A program made the position numbers and the translations under genes. The notes beneath the pieces were generated by a model. The model was not told where the DNA came from. It was given only the letters and a program-made list of their open reading frames with translations, and searched no databases. A stretch of DNA of 44,363 nucleotides, taken from assembly GCA_964444375.1 (NCBI GenBank), contig CAYUGX010000004.1, positions 1 through 44,363 on the forward strand. The letters run 5' to 3'. Shown piece by piece: positions 31,163 through 40,851 of the stretch. This DNA comes from an uncultured Porphyromonadaceae bacterium (lineage in GTDB: Bacteria > Bacteroidota > Bacteroidia > Bacteroidales > UBA12481). The stretch's first letter is position 1. Every line of letters begins with the position of its first letter.

Positions 31163-32116
31163 TTAAAAAACGGCCTGAGCTATCCGATGGATATTATCTG
31201 AGCGCCCCATGGTAAAAAAATGAATCACTGGTATACCCTTCTTGATCAGCTCCTTACTTTGAGCAATAGCCCATTCTACCCCTAATTCTCTGACCATTTT
31301 ATTATCGGTGCATTTATCAACCTCTTTTGCCAATTCGACTGGAATATCAACTTTAAATGTCTGTGGTAAAAGGTTGAGGTGCTTCTTAATCGAAATGGGT
31401 TTCAATCCCGGTATGATCGGCACCGAGATCCCAGCTTTACGACAGGCATCAACAAAATCAAAAAATTTCTTATTGTCGAAAAACATTTGGGTGACTATAT
31501 ATTCAGCACCCGCATCCACTTTTGCCTTGAGGTACTGGAGGTCTGCTTCTAAATTTGGGGCTTCTGCATGCTTTTCAGGATAACCTGCAACGCCCACCGA
31601 AAATGAGGTGGATACCGGGTTAATCAATTCATCATCCAGGTATTTTCCATCATTCAGATCAATCACTTGTTTTAACAGATTCAGTGCGATGGAATGGCCT
31701 TGGTCTTCAGGTGTAAATCTTCCTCTAGCTGCATCCCCATCTCCCCTGACTACCAACACATTGTGAATACCCAGATAGTTTAAATCAATTAAAGCATTCT
31801 CAGTTTCTTCACGGCTAAATCCTCCACAAATTAAATGAGGAACCACATCAACCTGATATTTACTTTGAACAGCTCCGGAGATAGCCACAGTACCAGGCCT
31901 TTTTCTGACAATCCGGGATTCAAGTAATCCATCAGGACGACTCTTGAGAACCATTTCGGGCTGGTGATAGGTGATATTAATATATGGTGGATTAAACTCC
32001 ATCAAGGGATCCAGGGTATTATAGATGGTTTGTATGCTGGATCCTTTTGTTGGTGGTAAGATCTCAAACGAAACCAGTGGCTTATCTGATTGGGCTATAT
32101 GGTCTGTTACTTTCAT
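31163..32116 (-). CDS. metF: 5,10-methylenetetrahydrofolate reductase
   Basis: [35 protein letters not shown]. Confidence 0.95.
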
Positions 32117-35100
32117 GTATTATTCGTTAAAAATTTCAAAGCCCGTTCCCGCGTACATCCCCTGCGCTGACAATAATCATCGAGCTGATCGGGCAATATT
32201 CGGCCAACATTGAAATACTTGCTTTGCGGATGACTGAAGTACAATCCGGCAACTGAAGCTGCCGGAAACATGGCAAGATTATCAGTCAGCACCATGCCCA
32301 ACTCACTTGCATTGAGTAGCGAGAATAAGGTTTCCTTTTCCTGGTGGTCGGGACATGCAGGATAGCCACTTGCAGGTCTGGTTCCTTGGTACTCTTCGCG
32401 TAGCAATTCATCAATGGGCAGGTTCTCATTAGGAGAATACCCCCAGTATGTTGTCCTCACCTTATGGTGCAGTAATTCAGCATAGCCCTCAGCCAGTCGG
32501 TCAGCTAATATCTTGACCATAATCGCCCGGTAATCATCCTGGTTGTGTTCAAATTCAGCGATTATCTCCTCAATACCTATTCCGGCAGTAACAGCAAACA
32601 TTCCAACATAGTCGACTATATTTTGATCAACCGGATGAATGAAATCTGATAAACACAGATTTGGTAATCCATCTGTTTTTTCTTCCTGGTTTCTCAAATG
32701 GTAAAATCGAGATAGTTCTGATCTGGATTCAGGATCATATAAGATTATGTCTTCATTTTCTGAATGTGCCGGAAATAGGCCCAAGGCTCCTTTTGCCTTG
32801 AGTCGCTTTTCCTTTGCCAGCCAGGTCAGCATTTCCTCACCGTCTTGTACCAGCTTTCTAGCCTCCTCTCCTTTAATAGGATCGTTCAGTATCGCTGGAT
32901 ACTTACCCCGAATATCCCAGGAGAACAAGAAAAAGCTCCAGTCAATATACGGGAGTATTTCGGTCAAATCCTGATCATCAAAATGCTTCACGCCCAAGAA
33001 TTTAGGCACATAGGGCTCAAAATTGTTCCACTGAATAGCCAAGCGATTCATTCGAGCTTGCTCAAGGCTGATGTAAGGTTGGTCGGTGTGCCTCTGGGCA
33101 TAAGCCACTCTGATCTGTCGGTATTCTTCGTCTAGTTTGGCTGAAAATTCGGGCTCTGTATTCTCATTCAGCAGCGATTTCACTATCGCCGTCGATTTAG
33201 ATGCATCTCTAACATGAACAACTGGAAAACGGTATGAGGGATCAAGTTTAATGGCCGTATGTTGTTTTGAGGTAGTAGCCCCGCCGATTAAAACCGGAAC
33301 TTGTATTCCAGCCTTCTCTAACTCAGCCAACGTAAAGCGCATCTCTTCCAATGAGGGAGTAATCAGTCCACTTAGGCCAATCATATCGGCTTTCCAGTTT
33401 TTAGCTTCTTCAATGATACGGGCCGCTGGTACCATTACTCCCAGGTCTTTTATTTCATATCCGTTACAGGCAAGAATTACACCCACTATATTTTTCCCGA
33501 TATCATGAACATCGCCTTTTACTGTTGCTAACAGAATTCTTGCCGGAGCAGTTGATTGATTACCTGATTTCTTCTCTTCCTCAATATAGGGAGTGAGGTA
33601 AGCCACTGCTTTTTTCATAACACGAGCGCTTTTCACTACCTGAGGAAGAAACATTTTACCAGAACCAAATAGGTCTCCTACTCGGTTCATCCCATCCATT
33701 AATGGACCCTCAATCAAGTGCAAGGCCTGTGCAAAAGCTGGTCTGGCTTCCTCAAGATCTTCCTCAATGTGATCCGTCAAGCCGTTGACTAAGGCGTAGC
33801 TGAGTCTATCATTAACATCCTTTTGCCTCCAAGAGGCCAGTTCTTGTTTTCGCTTGTCTTTGTTTTCAACTTGATCGGCATAAGCCAGGATGCGTTCTGT
33901 TGCATCTTTCCGACGATTTAAAACCAGATCTTCGGCCAGTTTTAGCAGGTTCTCTTCAACTTCATCGTAGACCTCCAACAAGGTTGGATTCAAGATCCCC
34001 ATGTCCATTCCTGCTTGAATAGCATGATATAAAAAGACAGCATGTATACCTTCACGCACTGCGTTATTGCCCCTGAAAGAAAATGAAAGATTTGATACAC
34101 CTCCTGATATTTTGACATCCGGCAGGTTTTCTTTAATCCAGGTACATGCCTGAAGATAATTGACTGCATAATTATTGTGTTCATCAATACCGGTCCCCAC
34201 AGCCAAAATATTCGGATCGATAATTATATCTGTTGAGGGAAATTCAGCCTCATGAATAAGGAGATCATAGGATCTCTGTGCTATTTCAATTTTTCTTTCA
34301 TACGAATCTGCTTGACCAGCTTCATCAAATAGCATCACCACAACAGCGGCACCAAATCGTTTGATCTCTTTGGCTTGATGGACAAAGGTATCCGAGCCAT
34401 CTTTGAGACTAATTGAATTGACAACTGATTTGCCCTGAAGACAGCGCAACCCGGTACAAATTACCTCCCAATTTGATGAATCAATCAGAATCGGTACGCG
34501 AGCAATCTCGGGTTCAGTGGATATCAGTAACAAATACTCTCTCATGGCTTTAGATGCATCCAAAAGTGCATCATCCATGCACACATCAATCATCTGAGCT
34601 CCACCATCAACCTGATGTCTGGCCACTGATATGGCTTCTTCATATTTCTCTTCGCGAATCAATCGGGCAAACTTTCTTGATCCGGCTACATTTGTTCGTT
34701 CACCAATGTTGAGAAAATTCGTATTCTCGGCTATACTAATTCTTTCTAAACCCGCATAAGATGTCAGACTAGGAACCTTCTGAAATTCCCGGGGTTGGTA
34801 GTTCTTAACCAATTCAGCTATTGCCGTAATATGGGCAGGTGTCGACCCACAGCAAGCCCCAATTAGGTTGATCAATCCTTGCTCCAAAAAAGGTTGAATC
34901 AGATCACGCATTTCAGCAGCCGACTGGTCATAATCACCAAATTCATTTGGAAGCCCGGCATTGGGATGAAGACTGACATAGGCAGGTGAAAGTCTTGACA
35001 GATCAGCTACATATGGAGCCAATTGCTCAGCCCCGAGTGAACAGTTCAAACCGATGAGTAAGGGCTCAGCATGAACCACTGAAGCGATAAAGGCATCCAG

Positions 35101-35763
35101 TGTTTGTCCGGATAGCGTTCTTCCGCTTGCATCGGTTATGGTACCCGAAATCATGATTGGGTAAGCTTCATCCAGTTCATCAAACAATGCCAAAAGACCA
35201 TAAATTGCAGCTTTAGCATTCAGGGTGTCAAAAACAGTCTCCAGCATGAGTAAATCCACACCGCCCTCTATCAGGGCTTTTGCCTGTGACTGGTAGACCT
35301 CAACCAACTCATCAAAGTAGATATTCCTGAATCCAGGATTCTCGACATCGGGTGACAGGCTTGCTGTTCGATTCGTTGGACCCAAACTACCCGCCACGAA
35401 TTGTGTTGGCCCAGCCTGTTCTTTTGCCAGTCGTGCCGCTTCGCGATTCATAGCTTCAATCCATGATTCAAGCTTGTAATCGGCCTGACTGATGGCATTG
35501 GCATTAAAGGTATTGGTGGTGATGATATCTGCACCAGCATCCAGGTAGTTGCGGTGAATTTCAGCGATAAGACTGGGTCTGGCAATATTTAAGACCTCGT
35601 GATTGCCTTTTAACGACAGGTTTGCCTCAGAAAATGGACCAGTACTGTAATCAGCTTCTGATAGTTCAGCTTGCTGGATTTGAGTACCCATGGCACCATC
35701 CAGAACTAAAACTCGTTCGTCCAATGCGGTCTTCAGGCGATGGTATGATCTTGATTTCTTCAT
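32113..35763 (-). CDS. metH: B12-dependent methionine synthase
   Basis: [45 protein letters not shown], reactivation domain [12 protein letters not shown]. Confidence 0.97.
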
Positions 35764-35764
35764 T

Positions 35765-36964
35765 TCATGTTCCGGTAACTGCTAAAAAGACATCCAACTT
35801 AGGTAAAAGTTTTCGAATCCTGTGTAACAAGTCGAGTTTGATGCGTCCAATCACATAATTTTGTTCGGGTCCGGTATACTTTTCTGTGATCTCTTCAAAA
35901 TCAAAGAGGCTCAGATCGCTGGGTTGACTGTAGCGTAAAAAAACCTCAAGACTGAGTTCTCGACTGAATGAAAGCAGGCTATAGAAATTCCGCTTCTTGT
36001 ATTCGTAACGATAATTGTGCTTACGAGCTGTAATATCACTCAATACTGCTGATCCGGTAGGATGTCCGCCAGCCCCCTTCCCAAACATAAACTGTTTGTC
36101 ATAAAACTGTCCCTTTATGACCACCCCATTGTATTCATCTTCAACATTGTAAATGTATTTTGCTTTAGACACCAGGCGTGGTAAAACATAGATGGTGAAT
36201 TGATTATCAGGCAGTTTACATATTTCTGCAACGAGCTTGATGCGTCTGTCTTTTTCTTTAGCAAAACGTACATCGAAGTCAGACAGACGGCTGATACCAA
36301 AGTTTACTACCTCATCTGGATTGACCCATGTTCCCAGGCCATGAAGGGCTAAAATGACTGATTTAAACTTTGAGTCAAAGCCTTCCACATCAAAAACTGG
36401 ATTACTTTCAGCAAATCCCAAGGCTTGTGCATCACCCAGGGCCTGAGCATAATCAAGATTCTCATTAAACACCTTTGACAGGATATAATTGGATGATCCA
36501 TTCAAAATACCTGTTATCGATTGAAGCAAATCATTGTCATAGTATTCTTCTAGATTCCGAATGACTGGTATACTGCCACAGGCCGAAGCATCGTATAGCA
36601 AGGCTGCTCCGGTCTTCTCCTGCAACTCAATTAATTCAGGCAGGTGATATGCCAGCATTTTCTTATTGCCAGATACTACACTCTTGCCTTTCGATAAGGC
36701 CGATCGAACAATTTCATAGGCTGAATCAGCATCATCAATGAGCTCTACAACCAGGTTGATATCCTGATCATCCAAAATATCATTGGGTTCCAGGGTAATT
36801 AGCTCCTGAGCTACTTTCCGTTCTTTTTGAGGATCTTTTATGCAGATTCGTTTAATCGTTGCATCAGCCGTTTGAATGTCTTTTAAAACGGTATAGAGGC
36901 CTTGTCCAACAACCCCGAACCCAAACAAACCTATGGTAATTTTTTCACTCTTCTTTGATACCAT
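35765..36964 (-). CDS. hom: Homoserine dehydrogenase
   Basis: [41 protein letters not shown]. Confidence 0.93.
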
Positions 36965-36970
36965 TGTGTT

Positions 36971-37984
36971 CTAATTCAAAAAGTTAGTAATTGCTTTGGT
37001 CAATTGATCAACTTCAAGAAGGAAGCCATCATGACCATAAAAAGAATCTATCTCGATCAAACTGGCGCCAGGAATGTGTTTGGCAATAAAACGTTGCTCG
37101 TGAACCGGAAATAACAAATCTGAGCTGATTCCTATGACCATTGTTTTGACCTCGATTTGAATCAGCGCTGATTCAAGGCTTTTTCGTCCTCGTCCCAAAT
37201 TTTGAGAATCCAGGGCTTTGGTCAAAGTATAATAGGAAAAATGATCAAATCGCTTATCGAGTTTTTCACCTTGATACTGTTGATACGAACAGGCCTTGAA
37301 GTCTTGGAGCTTGTCCTTACTGGTTTCTGCTTGTGTCTTATTGTACGTCTGGGCATTCCGGTAGCTGAGAAGTGCAATGCTTCTTGCAGCCCGCAAACCG
37401 GCTGAAGGATAGGAGAATTGACCGGCCTGAAAACCAGGATCCGCTTGTATAGCCATCCGTTGAGACTCGTTGAAGGCGATACCCCAGGGTGATGCAATGG
37501 CGTTTGTTGCAATGGGAACGAGATGTGCAAATAAATCCGGATTGACCACTGCCCATTCCAATGCTTGCTGCCCGCCGAGTGATCCCCCGGTTATGAGTTG
37601 GATTTGTTGAATCTCGAGGTAGTCACATAACAATTGATGTGCGTTCACCATGTCTTTAACGGTGACCATTGGGAATTCTTTTCCATATTTCGCACCAGTG
37701 TGTGGATTCAAACTGACTGGTCCGGTACTGCCATAACAAGAACCCAGGATATTTGCACACAGGATGAAGTAGCGATCGGTGTCAAAAGCCAAGCCCGAAC
37801 CTACCATGCCTGGCCACCAAGCTTCTACATTAGAATTGGCGGAAAGGGCAAGACATACCCAGATGACATTGCTATTGTTCTCATTCAACTCGCCTGTGTA
37901 ATGATAGTGTATCTCTAACTCAGGCAGTATTTCTCCACACTCGAGTTCAAAAGGTTTTTCAATACGTATTCGGTGTTCTTTCAT
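36971..37984 (-). CDS. metX: Homoserine O-acyltransferase (MetX family)
   Basis: NILGSCYGSTGP, GGSLGG, SDLLFP, GHDGFL. Start at ATG 37984 preferred; acetyl versus succinyl specificity is not resolvable here. Confidence 0.92.
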   Translation of the reverse strand: MKEHRIRIEKPFELECGEILPELEIHYHYTGELNENNSNVIWVCLALSANSNVEAWWPGMVGSGLAFDTDRYFILCANILGSCYGSTGPVSLNPHTGAKYGKEFPMVTVKDMVNAHQLLCDYLEIQQIQLITGGSLGGQQALEWAVVNPDLFAHLVPIATNAIASPWGIAFNESQRMAIQADPGFQAGQFSYPSAGLRAARSIALLSYRNAQTYNKTQAETSKDKLQDFKACSYQQYQGEKLDKRFDHFSYYTLTKALDSQNLGRGRKSLESALIQIEVKTMVIGISSDLLFPVHEQRFIAKHIPGASLIEIDSFYGHDGFLLEVDQLTKAITNFLN

Positions 37985-37994
37985 GGATGCAAAA

Positions 37995-39272
37995 TTAAGC
38001 CAAGGCTTGCTCAAAATCAGCCTCTATATCAAGATAGTTTTCTAGTCCGACCGATACCCGCAATAATCCAGGAAAAACGCCTGCTGCGATTTGTTCAGCC
38101 TCAGTCATTTGTTGGTGTGTAGTCGTTGCCGGCTGAATGATCAGAGTCTTTGCATCACCCACATTAGCCAAATGGTGAACAAGTTGCAAGCTGTCAACCA
38201 CCTTCGTAGCCTGATCAGTCCCACCAGAGACTGTAAAGCTTAATACACCCCCAAACCCATTTGACAGGTATTTACTGGCCAAGTGGTGGTTAGGGTCAGC
38301 CGGTAAACCCGGATAGATTACTGAGTCAACAGCAGGATGGGCATTCAGATAGTTCGCCAGTCGCAGAGCGTTTTCACAATGTCGGTCCATTCTAAGGGAG
38401 AGCGTCTCCATTCCGTGCAAAATCATAAAAGCATTAAATGGGCTCAATGAGGGTCCAAAATCGCGAAGACCAATAGCACGAGCCCGGGTTATAAATGCCA
38501 ATTCTTTGAACTCTTCAGTAAAGCAAATGCCGTGATATTCATGAGCTGGCTCAGTAAATTGAGGGAATTTTCCGTTATTCCAGTCGAATGTGCCTCCATC
38601 AACAATCACACCTGCGATGGTAGACCCATTCCCCGATATCCATTTTGTTGCAGATTCCACCACAATATGAGCTCCCTGCTTCAAGGGTTGGCATAAATAG
38701 CCCCCTCCTGCAAAAGTATTGTCTACAATAATGGGTATTTGGTGAATTTCACTCAATCGATTAAACGCCTCAAAATCGGGCACCTCAAAACCTGGATTAC
38801 TGATAGTTTCCATATACAAGCCCCGGGTATTTTCATCGATTAATTTCTCAAAGTCACTTACTTTTGAAGAGTCAGCAAATCGAACCTCAATTCCAAGCTT
38901 TCTAAAACTGTGCTTAAACTGAGAAACGGTACCCCCATAAAGGAAAGGTGAAGTCACCAGATTTTTCCCCGGTTCGATCAAGTTCAAAACCGTCAAGAAC
39001 TGTGCAGCATGTCCAGATGACACTGCCAATGCCGCAACTCCTCCTTCAAGGGCTGCCATCCGTTCCTCTAAAATGGAAACTGTTGGATTTGATATTCTTG
39101 AGTAAATATGACCTTCAGCGCGTAGCTCAAAAAGATCAGCCGCATGGGCCGTATCTTTAAATACGTAGGCTGCGGTTTGATGTAAGGGGATGGCCGCGCT
39201 CTGCGTGTCGGTGTCAGCCTGGTATCCTGCATGGATTTGCAGGGTTTCGAAATGAAATTTATTATTTGTCAT
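37995..39272 (-). CDS. metY: O-acetylhomoserine aminocarboxypropyltransferase (sulfhydrylase)
   Basis: YSRISNPT, SGHAAQ, LYGGT, VDNT, SATKW (PLP Lys), LANVGDAKTLII, LRVSVGLE. Confidence 0.93.
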   Translation of the reverse strand: MTNNKFHFETLQIHAGYQADTDTQSAAIPLHQTAAYVFKDTAHAADLFELRAEGHIYSRISNPTVSILEERMAALEGGVAALAVSSGHAAQFLTVLNLIEPGKNLVTSPFLYGGTVSQFKHSFRKLGIEVRFADSSKVSDFEKLIDENTRGLYMETISNPGFEVPDFEAFNRLSEIHQIPIIVDNTFAGGGYLCQPLKQGAHIVVESATKWISGNGSTIAGVIVDGGTFDWNNGKFPQFTEPAHEYHGICFTEEFKELAFITRARAIGLRDFGPSLSPFNAFMILHGMETLSLRMDRHCENALRLANYLNAHPAVDSVIYPGLPADPNHHLASKYLSNGFGGVLSFTVSGGTDQATKVVDSLQLVHHLANVGDAKTLIIQPATTTHQQMTEAEQIAAGVFPGLLRVSVGLENYLDIEADFEQALA

Positions 39273-39307: not shown

Positions 39308-40675
39308 TTAATTGAATAACTCATCATGGATGGCCAGTAAAGCTTTATTTCGCAGTTTGCGGTTAACGAGGAAATAGATCGCCACTCTTGATGCACCGAA
39401 TGAGATGAAATCGACATTGATTTTTTCTTTTGCGACAGCACTGAAAATTTTTGCTGCGAGTCCGGTTTGTGTCAATACGCCTTCTCCCACAGCTGCGATC
39501 AGGCTCAATGGATTTGATTCGTCGATCAGATCAATACCGGGAATACTCATGCGCTCAATAAGCTGATGGGCAATAAAAACATCCTTATCATTTAATAAGA
39601 GACTGATGGCTACTTGTGAGGTAATCACCGACCGGATATTGATCCGGTTCTGTTCAAGACCGTTGGTGATTTTATTCAGGATTCCTGGGGTAATCCCAAC
39701 ACCGGGTCCACGAACTGTTAGTGTTTTAACTTCATCAGAGTAAGTGACAGATTTGATCCCATCCGGCAGGTGATCTTGCTGACCACCTACGACAGAAAAT
39801 GGCTGCAATTTCTTGCTCACCTGTAAAAAATTAAAAACCCGTACGGGGATCTGATCCGCTTTGAGCGGCTCAACCGTTCTCGGATGTAAAATCTTTGCAC
39901 CGAAATACGACAATTCAGCCGCTTCAGTATAACTAAGCTTCGCAATGGGAACAGGTTTATTGATGATCGTTGGATCACCACTGAGATAGCCCTTCACATC
40001 TTTCCACACATCAAGTGATTGCGCCCCAATACATTTGGCCAAAGCTGCAGCTGAATAATCGCTCCCTCCACGTCCGAAAACAGTGATTTTCTGTTCTTGT
40101 GATATACCGTAGAATCCAGGCACTACCCAGATCTTGTCAGGGCTCAGCCGCTCTCTCAGCTTTGGAGCAGATAAAGCAAAATCGACATTTGCGTTGTGAA
40201 ACTGTCCGTCGGTATATAAACCAATGAGCTCTGGCAAGGCTTCGGCTGCAGGTAGACTTTCTTGTTCGAGGTAGGCTGAAATCAGCAAAGAGCTGATGCG
40301 TTCACCGAAACTAACTACTTCGTCTTCAATAAAATCAGGAACACCGCCAATAAGTGCGATCCCCTTGAGCAAGTCGCCCAGTCGGGCCAATCGCTCATGA
40401 AAGAGCTTGATGGTGGAGAATTGAAGCTCAGTATCGGTTAAAGCTGTATACAGTACCTCCTCAAAAGATTGTCGAATGGATTTAAGAAAGGGCTCAATTT
40501 TTTGATTATTTAATTCATCCTCCCGGATGGTATCATACAATCGATCAGTCAAGCCATGAAATGCAGAAACAACCAGCACAACCGGTTCTTTATAACAAGT
40601 AACTAGCTTTTTGATCTGAACTAAACTTTGGGCGTCATGTAAGTTTGACCCACCTATCTTTATAACAATAGACAC
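39308..40675 (-). CDS. Aspartate kinase with two C-terminal ACT domains
   Basis: KIGGS, VVSA, SFGERIS, PGFYG, GRGGSDYSAA, EAAELSYFGAKILHP; GTG start. Confidence 0.93.
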   Translation of the reverse strand: MSIVIKIGGSNLHDAQSLVQIKKLVTCYKEPVVLVVSAFHGLTDRLYDTIREDELNNQKIEPFLKSIRQSFEEVLYTALTDTELQFSTIKLFHERLARLGDLLKGIALIGGVPDFIEDEVVSFGERISSLLISAYLEQESLPAAEALPELIGLYTDGQFHNANVDFALSAPKLRERLSPDKIWVVPGFYGISQEQKITVFGRGGSDYSAAALAKCIGAQSLDVWKDVKGYLSGDPTIINKPVPIAKLSYTEAAELSYFGAKILHPRTVEPLKADQIPVRVFNFLQVSKKLQPFSVVGGQQDHLPDGIKSVTYSDEVKTLTVRGPGVGITPGILNKITNGLEQNRINIRSVITSQVAISLLLNDKDVFIAHQLIERMSIPGIDLIDESNPLSLIAAVGEGVLTQTGLAAKIFSAVAKEKINVDFISFGASRVAIYFLVNRKLRNKALLAIHDELFN

Positions 40676-40746
40676 GTGTTTACTGGAATTAAGTGTTAAG
40701 AATAAAAGAAATTGGGGAAACGATCGAGACGGGGTAAGGTTTTATC

Positions 40747-40821
40747 CTACCCCAATGGCATTATCATACTGTTCATCTTGGCGATGATAAATAATTGCGC
40801 TGATGTATGTGTATTATCCAT
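40747..40821 (-). CDS. Candidate leader peptide of the met operon (MDNTHTSAQLFIIAKMNSMIMPLG)
   Basis: ATG 40821 to TAG 40747, between the -7 box and the aspartate kinase gene; three Met codons among residues 16-21. Translation is inferred. Confidence 0.6.
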   Translation of the reverse strand: MDNTHTSAQLFIIAKMNSMIMPLG

Positions 40822-40843: not shown

Positions 40844-40851
40844 CAAAGGTA
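40844..40851 (-). promoter_or_regulatory. -7 promoter box of the met operon
   Basis: TACCTTTG on minus, 22 nt upstream of the leader ATG. Confidence 0.7.

Follow-up and report, generated by a model that had tools for sequence, protein, structure and literature searches.

A conserved methionine-codon leader ORF, a putative methionine sensor, ahead of a six-gene methionine operon in Bacteroidales

A short upstream open reading frame (uORF) with three methionine codons close to its stop heads a six-gene operon (AK, metY-like, metX-like, hom, metH and metF) in the 44,363-nt stretch of DNA analyzed here (the window), and it is a real feature. On comparison with related genomes, the ORF, its Met codons, a hairpin over its stop codon (H1) and the base composition of the leader were all found to be conserved, and the uORF probably serves as a Met-codon sensor. 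We lean toward an explanation in which a translated, Met-sensing leader ORF would hold its ribosome during starvation and would thereby set the level of Rho-type termination ahead of the operon. Granting the sensor, the choice of Rho as its output is a tentative one, to which we give somewhat less than even weight.

The leader ORF, its stop-codon hairpin and their conservation

The leader and the operon lie on the minus strand (Table 1), and a pntA-like transhydrogenase gene is divergent on the other side of the leader. Rereading of the minus strand reproduced exactly the measurements of the initial annotation: the box TACCTTTG (40851-40844), the 22 nt from it to the uORF ATG (40821-40819), the 24 codons, the 71 nt from the uORF stop to the GTG start (40675) of the aspartate kinase (AK) gene, and the 3 Met, 3 Ile and 1 Lys among residues 12-21. 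The Met codons are found at 40776-40774, 40767-40765 and 40761-40759. We take the box to be a promoter element of the Bacteroidota -7 type, a type outside the coverage of the sigma-70 scan; a box with a TTTG end is located approximately 10-35 nt 5' of the uORF ATG in all 14 leaders of the set designated group A. No Pfam or NCBIfam family was matched by the uORF peptide. The riboswitch-free leader supposed by the initial annotation was borne out, the leader matching no Rfam family even at E ≤ 10, and the whole window likewise matched no Rfam family at the gathering score. Elsewhere in the genome there are two S-adenosylmethionine synthetase genes (C50:18687 and C162:10853-11110); neither a Met uORF nor a riboswitch was seen in the very A+T-rich DNA upstream of the C50 copy, and the C162 copy is cut by the contig end.

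Table 1. Coordinates in the window of the leader elements and of the genes of the operon.
Feature	Position	Strand	Basis or remark
Promoter-like box, presumably of the Bacteroidota -7 type	40844..40851	-	22 nt ahead of the uORF ATG
Leader ORF (uORF), 24 sense codons plus TAG (40749-40747)	40747..40821	-	translation as in the initial annotation
Met-codon patch, codons 16, 19 and 21 (-9, -6 and -4 from the stop)	40759..40776	-	sequence
Hairpin H1, 8 pairs, 7-nt loop	40731..40753	-	MFE and centroid folds
Spacer, 71 nt, pyrimidine-rich and G-poor, candidate Rho-loading region	40676..40746	-	composition
C-run plus U-rich tail, weak terminator-like alternative	40701..40717	-	7-bp pairing with 40750-40756, rivals H1 for the G-run
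Aspartate kinase (AA_kinase plus ACT), 455 aa, GTG start, first operon gene	39308..40675	-	domain match
Cys/Met PLP enzyme (O-acetylhomoserine sulfhydrylase-like, metY-like)	37995..39272	-	
Alpha/beta hydrolase (homoserine O-acetyltransferase-like, metX-like)	36971..38014	-	name inferred from context
Homoserine dehydrogenase (hom)	35765..36964	-	
B12-dependent methionine synthase (metH)	32113..35763	-	
Methylenetetrahydrofolate reductase (metF)	31163..32116	-	4-nt overlap with the metH end

Over all frames, the genome of the window (G000; 4.76 Mb, 43% G+C) has 49,357 short ORFs with a length of 12-60 codons, and 198 of these (0.40%) have at least three Met among their last 10 residues. Twelve of the 198 are intergenic, and the sole one ahead of a met gene is the leader uORF, no further Met leader ahead of a met gene being found among these Met-tailed intergenic ORFs. 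Taken alone, the observation in this single genome is suggestive rather than compelling, being only weakly above chance, and it is conservation in other genomes that places the uORF above chance. An ORF that arose by chance and has no regulatory role, for which the frequency of such tails in G000 leaves room, is contradicted by the comparative data described below, since the feature is seen again in 16 distinct related leaders and also precedes met genes in other families; we consider that reading extremely improbable.

When 40 relatives were searched at the DNA level, only the stretch from approximately 40728 to 40797, corresponding to the second half of the uORF and H1, was conserved in the other three genomes of the genus (g1; G001-G003), with 78-87% identity. 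Each of the three has a 24-codon ORF ahead of its AK ortholog; the first half of the ORF has diverged, but Met is kept at -9, -6 and -4 relative to the stop, and the last residue is Gly. The Arg and Asn codons beside the Met codons show synonymous differences among the genomes of the genus. A 21-codon version is present in all four genomes of the sister genus (g2), two of which show a single Met replacement (Ile for the -9 Met in one, Val for an extra -2 Met in the other). Thus, all eight genomes with an AK ortholog in these two genera, which as related genomes are non-independent samples, have an ORF of 21-24 codons with an in-frame Met patch and a hairpin over the stop codon, and the Met-rich uORF that the initial annotation expected in orthologous leaders is found near the stop and in frame in every one. 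Orthologous AK is absent from genera g3 (0/2) and g4 (0/19); four of the 19 g4 genomes have a match of 30-31% identity inside an ORF of approximately 820 aa, and the other 15 have none at E ≤ 1e-40. The same DNA search returned two weak matches to the AT-rich promoter side (G032 and G039).

Across the 16 distinct related leaders, the length of the uORF is held at 21-25 codons while its first half diverges. The Met positions alone are kept and the positions of Ile and Lys, which had been put forward as possible additional signals, are unconserved across the leaders; sensing of Ile and Lys is therefore not supported. Within group A, the Met patch and H1 form a block that is nearly invariant as DNA, and the -4 Met codon is invariably followed by C, whichever residue is encoded there. 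Invariance of patch nucleotides despite amino-acid change indicates that there is a constraint at the RNA level too.

The 5' arm of H1 contains the Gly codon and the TAG stop, and the hairpin begins 5 nt after the last Met codon. Its predicted stability is -13.1 kcal/mol in G000 (z -1.4) and ranges from -11 to -18 kcal/mol (z -1.1 to -4.1) in the group-A leaders, all 14 of which have it; the arms differ between subgroups only by changes that keep the pair (G-U/A-U, U-A/U-G) or by differing inner extensions. H1 was scored leader by leader because ungapped MAFFT alignment misplaces the 3' arms between subgroups. Over 36 leaders, the stop-codon interval has a mean z of -1.8, with 16 leaders below -2. 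As read from the folds, the distance from the last Met codon to the base of the hairpin is 5-7 nt in nearly all leaders and 3 nt in L041, and this gap holds whether the stop precedes the hairpin, falls in its arm or falls in its loop. Given the established geometry of the mRNA entrance, a ribosome with the last AUG in its A site would have H1 at that entrance.

Met-rich leader ORFs and SAM-I aptamers in other families

Among 151 genomes of the order, 14 encode a relative of AK at E ≤ 1e-60, and nine of these, with 40-45% identity, were taken for comparison. A Met-rich uORF ends 87-100 nt before the AK start in five of these nine AK orthologs of other families, and SAM-I is present in all seven of the nine that were scanned with Rfam; the other two (G138 and G169, outside the Rfam scan) have neither feature by eye. 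We also scored a wider set of 80 AK loci for a short ORF with at least three Met in an 8-residue window. Such a uORF is present at 10 of the 13 Bacteroidota-labelled loci with an AK identity of at least 39%, at none of the six with an identity of 32% or less, and at one of the 61 loci labelled otherwise, the patch in that one being N-terminal. Four of the 10 positive Bacteroidota loci (L016, L017, L019 and L026) have no SAM-I at the gathering score. The SAM-I model (RF00162) matches 16 of 20 related loci and gave no match in any of the four genomes G000-G003. The proposal that the leader peptide acts in place of a SAM riboswitch therefore fits this genus, where the uORF is found without a SAM-I match in 4/4 genomes, with the qualification that relatives have both aptamer and uORF. 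SAM-II (RF00521) gave no match, but its control also matched nowhere.

In the order as a whole, SAM-I gave 53 matches in 46 of the 151 genomes, and 30 of these loci were examined. The start codon that follows the aptamer (L178-L207, L008-L041), whether that of a gene (metH, 3 loci) or that of a uORF, lies 1-17 nt behind it. A uORF of at least 18 codons with a Met-rich end is present at approximately 12 of the 30 loci, so that about 40% of the sampled SAM-I loci in the order would include an unannotated, putatively functional small ORF. L178 and L181 have ordinary terminators instead of a uORF. This variety of gene start, uORF and terminator behind SAM-I indicates that the expression platforms in the order are diverse, and the uORF type appears to be undescribed.

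To select uORFs blind to their Met content, we took the first ATG no more than 20 nt after the SAM-I aptamer and kept frames of 15-70 codons, which yielded 18 uORFs from 18 genomes of different genera. Over the last eight positions, 29 of 144 residues are Met, versus 10 of 398 elsewhere (Fisher p 1e-10, a value that overstates the case because homologous leaders are not independent events), and the ATG triplets in the last 24 nt of these uORFs are distributed 29/1/1 by frame. The genes that follow are metY-like, metH-like, AK and others. At three of the 30 SAM-I loci the first codon of a metH-like gene is found 12-15 nt behind the aptamer. The uORF start thus falls where a start codon under direct control would, an argument both for translation of the uORF and for its gating by SAM.

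A scan of metagenome contigs returned 80 loci; the search pattern had the three Met codons and the 5' arm of H1 built in. AK-type leaders make up five of the 80. On seven contigs, an ORF of 23-25 codons with a complete hairpin over its stop is followed 82-219 nt downstream by a Cys_Met_Meta_PP gene; because the pattern forces the Met codons and the 5' arm, only the open frame and shape of the ORF, the 3' arm and the neighbouring gene are independent evidence in these seven. Their position before a Cys_Met_Meta_PP gene instead of AK suggests that the leader is tied to met genes rather than to AK. Approximately two dozen of the 80 loci were dropped because the pattern there overlaps a longer gene in a different frame; by eye, a peptidase-like motif was read in these. 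Five of the metagenome leaders (L109, L115, L119, L130 and L174) have another small, conserved hairpin, which lies 25-35 nt ahead of the metY-like start and has a U-rich run 5' and an A-rich run 3'.

The same comparisons bear on the possibility that the Met patch and H1 constitute an RNA element that binds a ligand or a protein, the ORF being incidental. Such an element could account for the near invariance of the group-A block as DNA and for the constant C after the -4 Met despite residue change, and the patch can indeed pair with upstream codons. However, the frame remains open over 21-25 codons while the first half diverges, the ATG triplets of the position-chosen uORFs are almost all in frame, and the residues between the Met codons differ freely between families. 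In addition, the uORF start sits where the directly controlled metH start does, SAM-I would make a further aptamer for SAM or Met behind it superfluous, and no Rfam family was matched. We therefore regard an incidental ORF as very unlikely and retain the Met-codon sensor as the probable function. In fold predictions for the window, the two Ile codons preceding the Met patch can pair with the region of the first Met codon (40750-40780 and 40783-40800), and the Met patch of SAM-I-linked leaders is often self-folding; such pairings may explain the nucleotide-level conservation inside the patch.

Spacer composition and the output of the leader

In the mechanism that we infer for the operon from AK through metY, metX, hom and metH to metF, the uORF would be translated, beginning a few nt after the transcription start. 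When Met-tRNA(Met) is scarce, a ribosome would wait at the in-frame AUG codons, parked against H1, and would keep transcription, or the transcript, alive into the operon. When methionine is plentiful, the ribosome would instead pass through H1, terminate and leave, and its departure would be followed by premature termination in the unstructured, pyrimidine-rich and G-poor spacer. The terminating agent would be Rho, excluded by shielding of an adjacent loading region in the manner of tnaC and speFL, with codon starvation rather than an arrest peptide holding the ribosome; apart from Met and a Gly that H1 fixes, the residues differ from subgroup to subgroup, and no conserved arrest peptide was found among them. 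In related families, SAM would gate translation of the uORF, as the start of the uORF 1-17 nt after the aptamer makes probable, and the lineage of G000 would have kept the ribosome-based half only. Leader-peptide control is in use elsewhere in G000, in leaders rich in His and Phe codons, which we count in favor of the Met sensor.

We propose Rho as the terminating agent because no intrinsic terminator was found: the terminator scan detected no hairpin followed by a U-run on the gene strand between the uORF and AK. The Rho reading rests on this exclusion and on composition. The spacer of G000 is 30% C, 35% U and 7% G, and its C/G ratio of 4.2 corresponds to the 99th percentile of 1059 gene-upstream windows in the same genome. 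In 14/14 group-A leaders, C exceeds G in the spacer as well as in the first half of the uORF, whereas SAM-I-linked leaders have no such skew (C/G 0.4-2.2). A Rho gene is present in G000 (PF07497 match at G000:C78, E 1e-34). Against Rho, the skew is a matter of composition only. Furthermore, a ribosome parked before H1 leaves the spacer uncovered, so that shielding would need steric help from the folded hairpin, which is speculation. Both translation initiation and Rho differ in Bacteroidota from the E. coli model.

Two other leaders of G000 provide a comparison. One (L221, G000:C51:18199-18270, plus strand) is a 23-codon ORF with 5 His in 8 residues, situated 70 nt before hisG (Pfam HisG), and has a strong hairpin with a 9-U terminator; the other (L222, G000:C6:7680-7763, minus strand) is a 27-codon ORF rich in Phe, Tyr and Trp, situated 66 nt before the gene for prephenate dehydratase (Pfam PDT), with a hairpin and 8-U terminator directly ahead of that gene. 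The terminator scan picks up the terminator of the Phe leader as well as, on the opposite strand, the hairpin of the His leader and the T-runs that flank it, and the spacers of both leaders have a C/G ratio near 1. A classical terminator switch of the trp/his type is not borne out, as the hairpin and U-run present in the His and Phe leaders are missing between the uORF and its gene. Because the His and Phe leaders use canonical terminators, a different output for Met needs a reason, and we offer none.

Two structural candidates were set aside. For a classical region 4, the 3' arm of H1 has no G-rich partner downstream, where, as judged from thermodynamic folds only, the G-poor spacer supplies no complement. 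Nor was a long-range helix between the Met patch and a distal site ahead of a U-run consistent across the 36 leaders.

The same sensor might act through a weak intrinsic terminator, with the G-run at 40750-40756 pairing with the C-run at 40711-40717 ahead of the U-rich tail, and with H1 as the antiterminator. The alternative helix has 7 bp, including 4 G-C pairs, and 7 of the 9 nt behind it are U. In G001, a longer counterpart of 11 bp precedes a U-run, and in the g2 leaders a U-rich tract lies 8-10 nt downstream of H1. However, H1 is more stable, is transcribed first and encloses none of the rival helix, leaving no obvious way for a ribosome to favor the terminator. In addition, comparable pairing is found only in G001, where it falls within local repeat hairpins, no U-rich site was found in the G002 and G003 spacers, and the scan was blank on the gene strand of the leader though it detected the Phe-leader terminator and the His-leader hairpin. 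We judge this output improbable.

Alternatively, the output of the sensor could be post-transcriptional, the parked ribosome opening the start region of the first gene or protecting the 5' end of the mRNA from decay. The uORF does lie at the very 5' end of the transcript, and unmasking of a ribosome-binding site by stalled ribosomes is documented for Cys-rich leaderless ORFs (10.1101/834739). In fold models of the 36 leaders, however, the predicted accessibility of the start region is unchanged by ribosome position, the mean unpaired probability being 0.55, 0.55 and 0.55 for the ribosome-free leader and for a ribosome placed at the last Met codon or at the stop, respectively (Wilcoxon p 0.62, 0.90). 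The G-poor spacer of G000 has almost no pairing partner to offer, and it is not obvious how control over only the first gene would extend to all six. A post-transcriptional output is thus unlikely in our estimation, and Rho-type termination, tentative as it is, is the output that we carry forward.

Several relatives have tandem arrays of 7-9-nt units in the spacer between leader and gene (L004:1565-1641, L111:759-945, L002 and L003). The G003 spacer contains an 8-nt unit repeated 9.8 times, and L111 has four arrays, including a 9-nt unit repeated 9.7 times at 100% match; no tandem array was found in the G000 spacer. Most array units have one pyrimidine-C step, resulting in evenly spaced YC dinucleotides, and any link between these arrays and Rho loading is speculation.

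Relation to known leaders

Classical leader-peptide transcription attenuators control trp, his, thr, leu, phe and ilv operons. The uORF resembles them in being a short ORF right after a promoter, with a cluster of end-product codons near its end, conserved before a biosynthetic operon. It differs in that the amino acid is methionine and the codons are spaced (-9, -6 and -4) rather than in a run, and in that, unlike both the classical attenuators and the His and Phe leaders of G000, no hairpin-plus-U terminator or mutually exclusive terminator and antiterminator pair was found. To our knowledge, methionine is the one common biosynthetic amino acid for which the textbook modes of control, namely SAM riboswitches, T-boxes and protein repressors, do not include a leader peptide. 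In Pasteurellales, a predicted thrA leader, reportedly described by Vitreschak and colleagues in 2004, is said to include Met codons; it would be a mixed Thr/Ile/Met leader of the classical type in another phylum. A conserved Met-codon uORF would fill the leader-peptide gap for methionine, and would show how a lineage without SAM-I still senses the end product of the pathway. In other families of the order, the orthologous operons are under SAM-I (RF00162) control.

A different class, Rho attenuation that depends on a uORF and its shielding ribosome, is established for tnaC, speFL and cruR, whose uORFs sense a free ligand via a conserved arrest peptide and stall the ribosome at the stop codon (PMC12360218). 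These leaders and the one studied here share a short uORF beside a C-rich unstructured stretch and a stalled ribosome proposed to exclude Rho, which G000 encodes; here, by contrast, Met codons alone are conserved, the stall would be one of codon starvation, and the role of Rho is a proposed one. From sequence comparison, the element would thus work like a leader-peptide attenuator that departs from the classical type in its lack of a terminator, is not a SAM riboswitch, and lacks a conserved arrest peptide of the tnaC type. With no intrinsic terminator beside canonical His and Phe attenuators, G000 is a compact test case for factor-dependent attenuation.

The aptamer-bearing relatives call to mind the mgtA and corA leaders of Salmonella, in whose uORFs Pro codons take part. 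Those leaders combine a metal-sensing leader RNA with a sensory uORF (mgtL, corL) and Rho (PMC12360218), and in this respect resemble SAM-I followed at 1-17 nt by a Met-codon uORF, with two sensors in one leader; they differ in ligand and amino acid, and the aptamer half is missing in G000. In the relatives, riboswitch and sensory uORF appear to be wired in series, reading SAM and charged tRNA-Met separately. We offer as a possibility, one that we hold to be rather less than evenly likely, that a two-input leader is widespread in Bacteroidales (in the GTDB sense): SAM-I would gate a Met-codon uORF starting 1-17 nt behind it, and the dwell of the ribosome on three to five spaced AUGs, 5-7 nt before the stop-codon hairpin, would decide transcription of met genes in a factor-dependent manner without an intrinsic terminator, the family of G000 having shed the aptamer. 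If true, this would be a first in two respects, as a methionine-specific leader-peptide attenuator and as an amino-acid-sensing uORF gated by a riboswitch. In the literature searched, which left most subscription journals outside, we found neither a Met-codon leader in Bacteroidota nor an arrangement of SAM-I plus sensory uORF.

The polycysteine leaderless short ORFs of mycobacteria act by unmasking a downstream ribosome-binding site (10.1101/834739). They and the Met-codon uORF are both amino-acid-specific sensory ORFs at the extreme 5' end of biosynthetic operon mRNAs with a small regulon, and they differ in that no unmasking of the start region is predicted here.

The initial annotation knew of no well-characterized leader peptide of this kind in Bacteroidota, a statement that needs qualifying. 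The Bacteroid-trp motif of Rfam (RF01692) is a predicted case of leader-peptide control in this phylum as well, for trp, and G000 itself has the His- and Phe-codon leaders; RF01692 gave no match in G000-G003. G000 also contains a 54-codon ORF made up largely of Thr and Ile codons (G000:C129:9650-9814, plus strand), which ends 4 nt before a 468-aa ORF and is either a leader of the thr/ilv type or a simple repeat.
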